From the NCBI GenBank assembly GCA_965649205.1, contig CBFGJV010000014.1:1-62152 (forward strand): a DNA stretch of 62,152 nucleotides. Reading direction: 5' to 3'. This document shows positions 16,644 through 20,134 of the stretch, in pieces (positions within the stretch are counted from its first letter, which is position 1; each line of letters begins with the position of its first letter). Source of the stretch: a candidate division WOR-3 bacterium. GTDB lineage: Bacteria > Hydrothermota > Tepidihabitantia > Tepidihabitantales > Tepidihabitantaceae. Both the position numbers and the translations under genes were made by a program. The notes under the pieces were generated by a model. That model saw only the letters and a program-made list of their open reading frames with translations. It had not been told where the DNA came from and did not search any database.

Positions 16644-17753
16644 TCATAGGGCTGGGGCAATGAGTTCCGCCAAATCAGCTATGCGTACCAGTTGTTCGGA
16701 GTTGGTGGTTCTTACCGCATCTTCCAGGGTCGACGTGCAGAAGGGGCAGGCAGTAGCGATGATTCGCGCCGGCAGAGCAAGCGCATCGCGGACCCTGATT
16801 TCGGCCAGCCTTTCCTTTCCTTCTGACTCAACCCACATCCTGCCGCCTCCTCCTTCGCAGCACAGACTGGTTTCGGCGCTACGGTCATACTCGACGAAGA
16901 GCTCGTCAGCGAGGGCGTGCAGCAACTTGCGGGGCTCGGCGAATACCTTGTTCTGTTTTCCCAGAAAGCAGGGGTCGTGATAAGTAACGCTCTCTTCCAG
17001 TTTGTGTCTGATACGGAGTTTGCCTTGTTCAAGCAGTTCGGCCAGTAACTGCGTATAGTGCATAACTGGAGAAACAAGGCCGGTGTAATCGTTTTTCAGC
17101 GCATTGAAGCAGTGGGGCGAGAGAGTAACTATACGTTCAGAGCGGACAGAATTGAGTTTTTCCGTGTTCTGGCGGGACATTTCTTCAAACAAACCCTCTT
17201 CGCCCAGCCGACGTTGCTCACTGCAACAGCAGCTTTCCTCTTCGCCGAGGACACCGAAGTCCACACCGGCAGATTGCAGGATGGTGACAAGGGCGCGGGC
17301 TGTCTTCTGACCCCGTTCGTCGTAACAGGCTGTACAGCAGACAAACAGCAGCGTGTTTACTCTTTCACCCGGTTTCAGTATCCTGATGGACAAACCGTCT
17401 GCCCAGCCCATTCGTTTTTCTCGCGCACGCGACCACGGATTGCCCTGCAGGAAAGTGCTTTCCAACGCAGTCTGAATACTGACTGCCATGCGTCCGCCCT
17501 CTACCAGCCGAGAACGTAGCGCGGTAACCAGGTAGGCGGGGTTGACATTTTTGGGACAGCGGAGGTTACAGGTTGTACAGGCGGTACATTCCCAGATGCC
17601 AAGTTGTGGGAGGTCGCCTGGTCGTAGAAGCGACTCCTGTTCGGCGAAAACCAGCTTCCTTACATTCAGGCTGGACTTTGTGGAAACCGGGCAGGCACCG
17701 GCGCATCTGCCGCATTGGATACAATTGCTGATGTGGTACTCTGTTTTTACCAT
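16644..17753 (-). CDS. Fe-S binding protein with CCG domains (HdrD/GlpC-like oxidoreductase)
   Basis: CIQCGRCAGACP, CTACTTCNLRCP, EESCC, YHDPCFLG, CCEGGGG, TACPFC. Start at ATG 17753 behind a leaderless promoter (TTGATT-16-TAGAAT). Confidence 0.88.
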   Translation of the reverse strand: MVKTEYHISNCIQCGRCAGACPVSTKSSLNVRKLVFAEQESLLRPGDLPQLGIWECTACTTCNLRCPKNVNPAYLVTALRSRLVEGGRMAVSIQTALESTFLQGNPWSRAREKRMGWADGLSIRILKPGERVNTLLFVCCTACYDERGQKTARALVTILQSAGVDFGVLGEEESCCCSEQRRLGEEGLFEEMSRQNTEKLNSVRSERIVTLSPHCFNALKNDYTGLVSPVMHYTQLLAELLEQGKLRIRHKLEESVTYHDPCFLGKQNKVFAEPRKLLHALADELFVEYDRSAETSLCCEGGGGRMWVESEGKERLAEIRVRDALALPARIIATACPFCTSTLEDAVRTTNSEQLVRIADLAELIAPAL

Positions 17754-18110
17754 TGGACGTGATTCTAGCTTGCCTGGTTGACAAATCAAGGGAGAACATG
17801 TCTTATTTCCGGCTCTCGTCTGGCAGCACATATTTGCGGTCAGTTGCCTGTTCTCGGGCAGCTTCTCTTCTGCCCGAACAGTCTGTGGGCTTGGGTCCAA
17901 CAGGATTGGGGAGCTCAGTCTCTTCTGTTTCTATTCCGCTGTTGGTTGCTTACCGGTCAGAGAAAGAACCGGGTATTATTCTTGTGGTAGCAATCTAACC
18001 TTTAATCCCGTCTGTATTTGACGGTACGGTTCATTCGCCGATGGTCAGGGAGCGAGCTGTTCGACTCTGCTAGCGACCAGGACAAAGAACTGGGGAGGTA
18101 GCGAGGAAGT

Positions 18111-18125
18111 TGGCACGGAAATTGA
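18111..18125 (+). promoter_or_regulatory. sigma-54-like promoter (-24/-12) immediately before the 12-bp array
   Basis: TGGCACGGAAATTGA versus consensus TGGCACGNNNNTTGC (one mismatch at -12). Confidence 0.4.
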
Positions 18126-18127
18126 GG

Positions 18128-18391
18128 GGGGGGTGACCCCCCGGGTGACCCCTAGGGTCACTTTTCGTGTCACCTGCCTAGTCAGCAGCGAGGCCACCGT
18201 TTGGCTAACTTACGGTATGAAATAGGGATACATCTTGAAACTTATAATCCGTATCAGCTTCGGATTGAACAGGGGGTTGAATATGGCCGTTATGCAGAGT
18301 GTCAGGTCCAGGTTGACTTGGGAAGTGAGGAGAGGGCTAAAGCGGAATTTGACTTGGGGAATGTTCTGCCCGTACAGCTCGGGTGCCAAGG
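18128..18391. repeat. degenerate tandem array with 12-bp period (T-N-A core)
   Basis: T-N-A recurs at 18134+12n: A in 19/19 and T in 17/19 consecutive units up to 18355; first units ggggggTGAccc, cccgggTGAccc, ctagggTCActt. Confidence 0.8.
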
Positions 18392-18468
18392 CCGGGGTGG
18401 AGATAAGGATGGCTGAGAGAGCAGGGGGAAGACGCAGGAGGTCTGGTTCAGAGCCAGGTTACGTGTGG

Positions 18469-18496
18469 TTGACAAGGTTTTTTGTCGGGCTAGTAT
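18469..18496 (+). promoter_or_regulatory. sigma-70 promoter of tRNA-Sec
   Basis: TTGACA-16 nt-TAGTAT, 9 nt before the tRNA. Confidence 0.75.
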
Positions 18497-18505
18497 GCTT
18501 CTGGT

Positions 18506-18600
18506 GGAGGCGTATGGGTGCTGGTGTGCCTGGCGGACTTCAAATCCGTATGGTCTGCGACAAGTGGACCGGTAGGTTCGATTCCTACACGCCTCCGCCA
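18506..18600 (+). tRNA. selC: tRNA-Sec (UCA)
   Basis: 8-bp acceptor GGAGGCGT/ACGCCTCC plus GCCA, 6-bp D stem with 4-nt loop, anticodon loop CTTCAAA, long variable arm, 5-bp T stem GTAGG-TTCGATT-CCTAC. Confidence 0.95.
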
Positions 18601-18629
18601 GTTGCTGGCGAGAATAGATTCGGGGTTTT

Positions 18630-19394
18630 TCAGTCCGGAATCCGGTTCAGTTCCGCATCAGTTCGGCGCAGGTACACAGGTACCAGCTTTTCCAAATTGT
18701 CGCCGCCTTCTCTCAGTATGGCTTCCTTTGCCGCTTCTGCTACGACCTGCGCTTCCGGGTGGGTAACGGGGGATATTATTGCCGCGATTCCGGATTTGTG
18801 GAGTAAAGGGAAACACAGAGGAGCAGCTTCACCGCACAGCACCAGTTGACTAAGGGGAAGTTTTAGAGGGGAGATTATGCCGGGCAGTTCTTTCGGGGCA
18901 GCCACACACGGAGCGAGCAGGGTCTTTTCTCGCGTAAACAGGCCGCAATATACCTGTTGTTTGCGTGCATCAGTTAGAGCCAGGTAGGCAGTTGCGCCAA
19001 TGTCGGATGTTATCGGTAAATCGACAGCGGCTGCTGTCCGGGCGATGGCCCTGAGAGTTTCGATGCCTTTTACCGGAATTTGCCAAGGCAGAGCCAGGCC
19101 TTTGGCCACGCTCAGACCTACTCTTAAGGAGCTGAACATTCCCGGCCCTATGGTCACGCCGATGCCATTCAGCTGAGAAGTTTCGATGCCCGTACACCGG
19201 CAGGCGAGACTGACAAGCTCTAGCAGGACTTCGTTATGATTCAGACCGGAGCGACGTACGGCAAAACGCAATCCGGTGGCGTCAAGAAGCGCTACACCGG
19301 TAGAATTGCTGCTGGTCTCAAGCCCGAGAAAATACTCGTTTGCCTGCGCAGAGACGATGCCGGCGGAAAAGGAGGCTGGTTGTGCAGCGGTCAT
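18630..19394 (-). CDS. tsaB: tRNA threonylcarbamoyladenosine biosynthesis protein TsaB
   Basis: LGLETS, GPGMFSSLRVG, DARKQQVY, P.YLR C-terminus. Confidence 0.92.
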   Translation of the reverse strand: MTAAQPASFSAGIVSAQANEYFLGLETSSNSTGVALLDATGLRFAVRRSGLNHNEVLLELVSLACRCTGIETSQLNGIGVTIGPGMFSSLRVGLSVAKGLALPWQIPVKGIETLRAIARTAAAVDLPITSDIGATAYLALTDARKQQVYCGLFTREKTLLAPCVAAPKELPGIISPLKLPLSQLVLCGEAAPLCFPLLHKSGIAAIISPVTHPEAQVVAEAAKEAILREGGDNLEKLVPVYLRRTDAELNRIPD

Positions 19395-20134
19395 CTCGTT
19401 TCGGGATGGTTAAGCAGGTAAAGTTCCAGAAGACCTCGAGCTACCAGGTCGGGTTCTACCCGTTGTATGCGGGGGATGAGCTTTCGCATCCTGCTGGCAT
19501 CGCCGCCGGTGGCAATTACCGTGTAGGTGCGGTGTGTGGTTTTTTCCAATTCGTGTATCATGGCGTTGATTCCCAGAGAGAGCAGGCAGGTAGCACCAGC
19601 TTGCAATGATTCGGCGGTATTGGCGGTGAGAAGGGCACGGAAAAGGCGAGGCCGTAATCGGGGCAACTGGGCTGTGCTCTGTTGCATGGATGTTAACATC
19701 ATCTGGTGTCCGGGCAGGATAGGACCGCCCAGAAAGCGGCCCCGGGCTGTTATTACATTGAAGGTTATGGCGGTGCCAAAGTCAATAACCAGAAGGTTCC
19801 CCGTAAACCTACTGCGGGCACCTGCAGCTGCACAGATACGGTCTTCGCCCAGCTGGTGGCGTTTGTATCTAATATTCAGTCCGGTCAACGACCTAGGGGT
19901 GAGTCGCCAGGGCTGGCAGCCGGTACGGGTGCGCAGGTAGTCAAGGCAGCGGGCGGTCTGTTCGGGTACGACAGAGGCTAGAGCAATACCGGTGATAGTT
20001 TTTCCTGGTGGTACGAGGCGACCGAGCCGGGAGGAGAGAAGCCGAGTAGGTACCTGACGGCGGAAGAGAAGACGACGACCACAGAAAAGATGCGAGCAGG
20101 TATGGGTATTGCCAATGGTTACGGTCAGGATCAT
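19391..20134 (-). CDS. coaX: type III pantothenate kinase
   Basis: IGNT, ASVVP, LGEDR, IDFGTAIT, GGPILPG, ATGGD. Start at ATG 20134 (ATGA overlap with birA), not the track's 20509. Confidence 0.9.
   Translation of the reverse strand: MILTVTIGNTHTCSHLFCGRRLLFRRQVPTRLLSSRLGRLVPPGKTITGIALASVVPEQTARCLDYLRTRTGCQPWRLTPRSLTGLNIRYKRHQLGEDRICAAAGARSRFTGNLLVIDFGTAITFNVITARGRFLGGPILPGHQMMLTSMQQSTAQLPRLRPRLFRALLTANTAESLQAGATCLLSLGINAMIHELEKTTHRTYTVIATGGDASRMRKLIPRIQRVEPDLVARGLLELYLLNHPETR

Follow-up and report, generated by a model that had tools for sequence, protein, structure and literature searches.

A phased 12-bp array upstream of a tRNA-SeC gene in a candidate division WOR-3 bacterium, and the association of its family with genes for SIRV2-fold capsid-like proteins

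The window analyzed here is a 62,152-nt contig (termed C14) of a candidate division WOR-3 bacterium. Within it, a gene encoding a CCG/4Fe-4S protein and a gene for tRNA-SeC enclose an intergenic region of 752 nt (Table 1). This region carries a phased array of 12-nt units, which is headed by the 16-mer TTGGCACGGAAATTGA and a palindrome and is trailed by degenerate units. The tRNA-SeC gene begins 150 nt past unit 19 on the plus strand, so the array is indeed upstream of it, as an earlier note on this DNA had stated. The neighbors of the array, as classified by Pfam, are a PBP, the CCG/Fe-S gene, a TsaD-family gene and a pantothenate kinase gene, and no partition or replication gene is among the neighbors scanned in this way.

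Table 1. Positions of the features in the window and of second-family arrays on other contigs of the same genome.
Feature	Position	Strand	Basis or remark
CCG/4Fe-4S (HdrD/GlpC-like) gene	16644..17753	-	Pfam; promoter-like site 17789-17762
16-mer TTGGCACGGAAATTGA	18110..18125	+	resembles a sigma-54 promoter (-24 TGGCAC, 5 nt, -12 TTGA), aimed into the array
G8-TGA-C6 palindrome, predicted nucleation box	18126..18142	.	inverted-repeat search; dyad 18135
Phased array	18128..18355	.	19 units of 12 bp, consensus xxxGxxT(G/C)Axxx; GT[GC]AC cores in units 1-4
Three degenerate trailing units	18356..18391	.	A kept in units 21 and 22
Sigma-70-type promoter-like site of tRNA-SeC, outside the array	18469..18496	+	TTGACA, 16 nt, TAGTAT
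tRNA-SeC gene	18506..18600	+	ARAGORN; Rfam RF01852, 73 bits
Second-family array	C1:64835-65193		one of seven copies
Second-family array	C5:1042-1403		one of seven copies
Second-family array	C5:49758-50092		one of seven copies
Second-family array	C6:11877-12238		one of seven copies
Second-family array	C8:34527-34884		one of seven copies
Second-family array	C20:14449-14867		one of seven copies
Second-family array	C43:6310-6680		one of seven copies

Re-reading of the array gives exactly the counts previously stated. A occupies column 9 in 19/19 units, T occupies column 7 in 17/19 and G occupies column 4 in 13/19, and there is no indel across the 228 bp. With the four near-palindromic units at the left end set aside, A is still present in 15/15 units and T in 13/15. 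The four GT[GC]AC cores start at positions 18133, 18145, 18157 and 18169. Tandem Repeats Finder reports the left end as a local 12-nt duplication (18131-18158, 2.3 copies, 87%). Because the program detects only 2.3 copies, the units must be unlike each other beyond a few phased letters.

The shuffle test of the periodicity that had been suggested supports the array. The null was obtained by shuffling the whole 752-nt intergenic region 5000 times with its dinucleotides preserved, and a 19-unit window could take any place and phase. The best single-column count in the shuffles averaged 11.8, reached 17 once and never reached 19 (0/5000). When periods of 6 to 24 were compared, a column of 100% appeared only at 12 and at its double, 24, and the other periods gave 50-82%. 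In a scan of periods 4-40, the array is also the longest A or T run of the 2.15-Mb genome; the runs that equal or exceed it consist of C or G and belong to other period-12 arrays. The strands of the array differ in composition (G 71, C 47).

A DNA search with positions 17760-18505 as the query against 41 genomes (the same genome plus relatives) produced matches only to the part from 18107 to 18161. These matches lie at four further places in the same genome, at one in the congener G001 and at one in G007. The piece shared by the copies is TTGGCACGGAAATTGA, followed by a palindrome made up of a G-run, AGTGAC(T) and a C-run. The first 36-43 nt of the array recur at ~90% identity on contigs C17/C36, C6 and C16 of the same genome and in G001. 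Arrays of T-N-A in a 12-nt register are found on C17 (continued on C36) and at G001:C114. The C16 and C6 copies are weaker and visibly decayed, with A in 11/20 units, and a fifth copy, on C47, has kept the palindrome and array and has no 16-mer.

Public metagenome contigs contain 17 loci with the 16-mer plus GGG, two of which are arrays (L035 and L036). In these two, A is in phase in 23/29 and 19/29 units, respectively, compared with 5-16 of 23-29 units at 20 other 16-mer loci. Among species genomes, the 16-mer plus GGG was found at five loci, none of which is an array. A motif search allowing exact or one-mismatch hits in 44 genomes of the bacterial family confined the arrays to the bacterium's own genus. 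Motif matches in G046, G047 and G001:C40 were discarded as unrelated, mostly coding sequence.

When 96 units from five sister arrays are pooled, A is present in 89/96, T in 70/96 and a middle G or C in 81/96, which defines the T-S-A subtype. The next column is G in 56/96 units, and columns 3-4 are G-rich. This pooled profile equals that of the C14 array; the G of column 4 and the G of column 10 have no mirror about the dyad. Among the T-S-A arrays of its genome, that of C14 is the best preserved (A 19/20, T 18/20), and it has these features of the family: a strict 12-bp register (19 units, no indel), an in-register palindromic box at one end and the T-S-A unit profile. A looser rule, one pyrimidine-purine step per 12 bp (Y-N-R), accommodates 19/20 units at C14, 18/20 in G001 and 19/20 in L035, and was dropped as a common rule because it applies to only 12/17 at C17 and 12/20 at C6.

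The 16-mer is identical in 7/7 arrays of the T-S-A genus type (C14, C17, C16, C6, G001:C114, L035 and L036). A box of the form G4-5 AGTGAC(T) C4-5 heads the sister arrays, and boxes of the same type head T-S-A arrays upstream of capsid-like genes (see below) in other genera (L083, L089, L084 and L104, and also L093). The T-S-A arrays of other genera do not carry the 16-mer and have kept the palindrome and the phasing. In C14, the dyad of the palindrome (18135) falls on column 8 of unit 1, which is the N of the first T-N-A. Thus, the palindrome is in register with every later T-N-A, at multiples of 12. These observations do not support the proposal of the earlier note that the array grows from one end and decays with distance from it. 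The pattern instead consists of a 16-mer and palindrome common to the family and then degenerate units, although one unit at the left end has indeed been duplicated in phase.

Stop codons interrupt all six frames of the array, as had been claimed (1, 1 and 13 stops in the plus frames; 1, 8 and 3 in the minus frames). One way to account for the T-N-A rhythm is a minus-strand gene, live or decayed, for a tetrapeptide-repeat protein, which might share a transcript with the downstream gene, and a decayed ORF of this type was the alternative offered earlier. On the minus strand, hydrophobic codons take their middle T from the conserved A, and T/N/K/S codons take their first A from the conserved T, so the encoded rhythm would be hydrophobic, T/N/K, often P, and any residue. 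This frame has a single stop in the C14 array (TAA, 18210-18212) and is fully open over the 79 codons available at C17. However, it is broken in six of eight sister arrays, and the corresponding plus frame is likewise open in only 2/8. No frame is consistently open, and the best two contain 9 and 10 stops over the eight sister arrays. Moreover, among 15 canonical arrays upstream of capsid-like genes, five are closed in every frame over 240 nt. In 7/7 arrays, the 16-mer does not vary even at sites that would be synonymous, and everything past the palindrome is saturated. Pfam gave no match for the small ORFs, no Shine-Dalgarno sequence was seen before the candidate start, and, by eye, the second-position Ser codons of L035 are AGY in 4/4 cases. 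Judged by comparison of these copies, no frame of the array is conserved as coding. The tetrapeptide alternative is therefore largely refuted, and a gene of this kind on the minus strand is extremely improbable. Relatives with an intact tetrapeptide ORF at this place had also been envisaged; in the four relatives read, a set that leaves out L044, the syntenic locus of tRNA-SeC is free of arrays, and the tRNA-SeC gene of G001 follows the end of a protein gene by about 50 nt.

A structural noncoding RNA, another of the earlier suggestions, is unsupported. The predicted fold energies of both strands match those of shuffled sequences (z of -0.17 and +1.12), and a search of positions 17000-19500 with Rfam 15, at E values up to 1, returned only tRNA-Sec. 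The array is real, highly non-random and non-coding, and its class is undescribed. Full-text searches of the literature did not find 12-bp phased arrays of such kind, in agreement with the remark in the earlier note that it matches no known element class.

Sigma-54 promoters carry GG at -24 and GC at -12, spaced by 10 bp (TGGCAC-N5-TTGC). The head of the array, TGGCAC-GGAAA-TTGA, fits the GG and the spacing, and its -12 GC reads GA. The genome encodes rpoN (PF04552, 171 bits, C7:43863-44318). An exact copy of TTGGCACGGAAATTGA lies 57 nt ahead of the start codon of a P-II nitrogen-regulator gene in an Acinetobacter qingfengensis contig (L020:1124-1520, minus strand; Pfam, 8e-34), which is a typical setting of a sigma-54 promoter. 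No activator site was identified for the 16-mer of the array. A single RNA run (n = 1), from the same study as the best-matching DNA run, gave zero cover of the stretch and is uninformative on transcription.

The head might thus drive a noncoding RNA that presents U-S-A every 12 nt and serves as a sponge or scaffold for an RNA-binding protein, or that forms an R-loop. The perfect identity of the 16-mer among the seven arrays, the presence of rpoN, the P-II gene context in Acinetobacter and the G-richness of the strand that would be transcribed are all in keeping with such an RNA. However, apart from the GA at -12, T-S-A arrays of other genera dispense with the 16-mer and keep the palindrome and phasing, and a second array family of this genome (described at the end) has a different head. 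The absence of a stable fold and of an Rfam match also counts against it, and in G001 the transcript would, by eye, run antisense into an endonuclease III-like ORF. Because T-N-A is symmetric on both strands, it suits double-stranded DNA more than RNA. A sigma-54-driven RNA is therefore an unlikely explanation for the array. As compared with known sigma-54 promoters, the array head is alike in having TGGCAC, 5 nt and TTG at the correct spacing in a genome with rpoN, and is unlike in its -12 GA and in that a phased non-coding array, rather than a gene, lies downstream.

A second site of this general form lies on the minus strand where the array runs out, far from its head (18374-18389). It reads TTGGCAC-N5-CTGT and is aimed back inward, with a perfect -24 and a poor -12 element.

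The orthologous loci C17 and G001:C114 have 77% nucleotide identity in their adjoining gene, and their arrays can be aligned only over the first 31 nt. When these two arrays are compared in register, only 44/136 positions (32%) outside T-N-A agree, compared with 15/16 for A and 10/15 for T. Similarly, the C14 and C17 arrays are unalignable past 43 nt, yet A is retained in 19/19 units of C14. Both comparisons suggest that the T and A columns are under selection. A ~93% variant of positions 18239-18535 is present in contigs of two hot-spring metagenome runs, and its 11 substitutions in the array part include none at T or A columns, an outcome with a chance of about 0.13.

Two further observations concern spacing. 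In a related strain (contigs of run X2), the array has one inserted and one deleted base at 18330-18333, separated by three bases, such that the register is kept; this pair could be an alignment effect. At C17:1-800 (L039) and G001:C114 (L010), the spacers between the array motif and the adjoining gene are equal in length and not alignable in sequence, and their distance or phase may be constrained.

The gene that adjoins the array on C17 belongs to a family related to filamentous-virus capsid proteins. PF12193 has five sub-threshold matches in the genome, one of which, C17:424-792, is the only gene of the T-S-A clade in this genome. The gene starts 187 nt from that end of the C17 array which carries the motif, and it points away from the array, and the G001 orthologue is arranged alike. 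Thus, divergent capsid-like genes adjoin the palindrome at both C17 and G001:C114. PF12193 matches 29/31 members of the family. When a profile of the 31 sequences was searched against the PDB, the top six matches were capsid proteins of SIRV2 (3j9x, 6e-4), SSRV1 (6wq0, 7e-4), AFV1 and SFV1. An AlphaFold (AF2) model of the capsid-like protein has a pLDDT of 93.2, and Foldseek searches with this model gave Adnaviria capsid proteins as 9 of the 10 top matches, including 3j9x at a TM score of 0.71. Identity to the viral homologues is ~20%. On the strength of the profile and the predicted model, the protein is a true relative of the SIRV2 fold.

The capsid-like family is found in 44/44 genomes of the bacterial family. 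In contrast, a 2024 review (PMC10848233) describes the capsid protein as unique to Adnaviria, which are archaeal viruses, and the realm as unconnected to bacteria. Our full-text literature search did not find bacterial homologues of these capsid proteins. The capsid protein dimers of AFV1 and SIRV each cover 12 bp of A-form DNA (PMC5517147), a footprint equal to the period of the array.

The tie between arrays and capsid-like genes extends beyond C17 and G001. Two of 13 arrays in the C14 genome lie within 300 nt of a capsid-like gene, which random placement reached in 67/20000 trials. We also inspected neighborhoods of about 3 kb around 58 capsid-like genes. The closest paralogue of the C17 type in each of 26 other genomes of the family is preceded by a period-12 array in 14/26 cases, where an array was called at a score of at least 38/48 (shuffles scored at most 33). 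These arrays start at 150-330 nt from the gene on its upstream side and are oriented away from it. Four of the 14 are T-S-A arrays headed by GGGGAGTGACTCCC-type boxes, and the other cores found near C17-type genes are A-C-S-G-T, C-C-A and C-A-G. At L086, an array of a further type, T-N-G-T, is headed by a palindrome with a matching core. When each genome was instead represented by its capsid-like gene with the top profile score, an array was upstream of only 3/28, which shows that the paralogue matters for whether an array is present; two further raised scores, at L058 and L075, sit in apparent coding sequence, by eye.

In a tree of 34 capsid-like proteins, array type requires 10 label changes, versus a mean of 16.8 for shuffled labels, and 0/200 shuffles were as low. 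The T-N-G-T arrays form a single clade with a support of 100/100. Two rows, L090 and L097, are labeled "none" although their upstream DNA is too short to judge. Because kin share labels, the clustering is evidence of joint inheritance and not of co-evolution. The arrays are tied to SIRV2-fold genes by association.

The C14 array itself is an orphan copy because the 62-kb contig carries no capsid-like gene, and no remnant of one is present in 17650-18135. The CCG/4Fe-4S gene, 373 nt from the palindrome, occupies the slot that a capsid-like gene holds at canonical loci. The L035 and L036 arrays likewise have no capsid-like gene within 1.5 kb.

Such a copy could be a functionless relic, in which a piece of the control region of a capsid-like gene was copied and is now decaying beside tRNA-SeC. 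This explanation is in accord with the lack of an array at the syntenic locus of the four relatives read, with the decayed state of the C16 and C6 copies (A 11/20) and with the truncated 5' gene pieces carried by some second-family arrays. However, a decaying relic is not expected to be the best-kept T-S-A array of its genome, even though it can no longer be aligned with its presumed source past 43 nt. The hot-spring variant, with no substitution at T or A columns, is a weak point in the same direction. We consider it improbable that the C14 array is a relic.

We propose instead that the array is a loading track for dimers of the chromosomal capsid-like protein, with one dimer per 12 bp. Binding is what we infer, and we judge the chance that this proposal is correct to be about even. 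One dimer per 12 bp in the viral relatives, a dyad that is in register with the units, and T-N-A as the smallest two-fold site together point to nucleation and spreading. A capsid-like dimer would nucleate on the palindrome (G-run/GTGAC/C-run), and further dimers would add head to tail along the weak phased T-S-A sites, each of which would be a minimal two-fold symmetric site for a homodimer. In this manner, ~20 dimers could coat ~230 bp in register. Because the only T-S-A-clade gene is on another contig, the protein from C17:424-792 would act in trans at C14, between the CCG/Fe-S gene and tRNA-SeC. The earlier note had suggested phase-conserved binding sites for a polymerizing protein. Of this suggestion, the rhythm and its link to a protein family stand, in that the array family is tied to SIRV2-fold genes whose viral counterparts encode proteins that cover 12 bp with each dimer, and the binding itself is the conjectural part.

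The sigma-54-like 16-mer directly adjoins the palindrome, and transcription from it would enter the array. Candidate roles for a filament are to occlude the sigma-54-like site, to insulate, or to shape the region upstream of the tRNA gene. Coating might repress the sigma-54-like site or, alternatively, transcription might clear the track. An orphan copy beside a tRNA gene and a sigma-54-like site would imply action in trans, beyond autoregulation alone.

Several points weigh against a loading track. The 12-bp footprint is presumed by analogy, being carried over from distant viral homologues. The C14, L035 and L036 copies have no neighboring capsid-like gene, and most capsid-like genes have no array, in that one precedes 3/28 of the best profile matches and 14/26 of the C17-type genes. 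The strand bias (G 71, C 47) and the unmirrored G columns are unexplained by a purely two-fold site on double-stranded DNA. In the C17 array, which is the cognate one, the T is often A (Y-N-R in 12/17 units), so the logic of a minimal palindrome is imperfect. Finally, the perfect conservation of the sigma-54-like 16-mer, which is aimed into the array, is likewise not accounted for by a loading track and fits a transcribed element as well.

The array could also be a lattice for another DNA-binding protein, or reflect intrinsic flexibility or curvature, with capsid-like genes being mere frequent neighbors. C14 and at least five other copies (C16, C6, C47, L035 and L036) do not adjoin a capsid-like gene, which would agree with this, and the presence of 3/13 arrays near tRNA genes (random placement, 19/20000) hints at a role at strong promoters. 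However, array type goes with the clade to which the capsid-like gene belongs, the 14/26 C17-type genes with an array have it at a similar distance and orientation, and the period equals the viral dimer footprint. These facts leave a lattice of unrelated purpose with a low probability, and we continue to prefer loading by the capsid-like protein.

The tRNA association is an observation in its own right. Within 300 nt of the three arrays are genes for tRNA-SeC, tRNA-Glu and tRNA-Met. All three arrays are co-oriented with the tRNA, two being upstream and one downstream (window 18128-18600; C1:64473-65193; C8:34527-35033).

A broader version of the loading proposal is that the capsid-like proteins wrap DNA at addresses set by its sequence, that each paralogue clade has its own 12-bp lattice (T-S-A, A-C-S-G-T, C-C-A and others) with nucleation at a palindrome, that orphan copies carry the system in trans to other loci, in C14 to the sigma-54-like site and the region upstream of tRNA-SeC, and that the whole constitutes a programmable A-form nucleoprotein switch or insulator. 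We advance this version tentatively, as it is possible but more doubtful than the loading track itself. If these proposals are true, the DNA-wrapping fold of these capsid proteins, so far regarded as confined to filamentous viruses of archaea, is also used by bacterial cells, which would bear on whether the Adnaviria capsid arose from a cellular ancestor or was captured from a virus. The arrays would also represent a new type of bacterial chromatin or regulatory element, in which the rhythm of the track encodes the footprint of the protein. With a track of 230 bp, a single small protein and a periodic footprint predicted at 12 bp, the system would lend itself to unusually clean testing. New here are the T-S-A subtype, the in-register palindrome, the sigma-54-like head, the orphan copies and the clade-specific array types.

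Some known systems share part of this arrangement. The virions of Adnaviria (SIRV2, SSRV1, AFV1 and SFV1) resemble it in the fold of the gene beside canonical arrays and in the period, which equals the 12 bp covered by each viral dimer (PMC5517147). However, the viral proteins coat a whole genome that has no known sequence rhythm, whereas the arrays are short bacterial chromosomal tracts of 230-300 bp with a palindrome, and the C14 copy has no gene. Rho utilization (rut) tracts are also long, strand-biased and non-coding; in C14, however, the bias is mild (G 71, C 47), the conserved T and A are strand-symmetric, and no YC rhythm was seen.

The 12-bp repeats of tubC bound by TubR, the parC sites of ParR and the heptads of omega are phased head-to-tail sites recognized by filament-forming DNA-binding proteins. 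The proposed arrangement in C14, one strong site followed by weaker ones that are phased head to tail, is similar. The differences are that the C14 units share only 2-4 of 12 bases (2.3 copies by Tandem Repeats Finder) and that, unlike tubC and parC, the element family is chromosomal and multi-copy. The origin of assembly of TMV has G at every third base, which matches the 3 nt bound per coat subunit. It therefore shares with the array a rhythm equal to the subunit footprint beside a nucleating hairpin or palindrome, but the array is double-stranded DNA and not RNA, its period is 12 instead of 3, and it belongs to a cell and not to a virus.

A second family of 12-bp arrays is present in the same genome (Table 1). 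Its members have ~27 units, are headed by AAGTGAAGCTTTTTCGTAGGGGGGTCGC, show a conserved Y-N-G plus a G, and are G-rich when read away from the head. The C43 array adjoins two capsid-like genes in the same layout as that of C17. The C20 array, and probably the C1 array too, retains a truncated 5' piece of a capsid-like gene. In another genome, at L070 (G055:C202), a well-kept array of ~24 units with the consensus TGAATCGGTGAG contains two TGA per unit. It lies 300-640 nt upstream of a capsid-like gene and, at 48/48, has the top score of all arrays.
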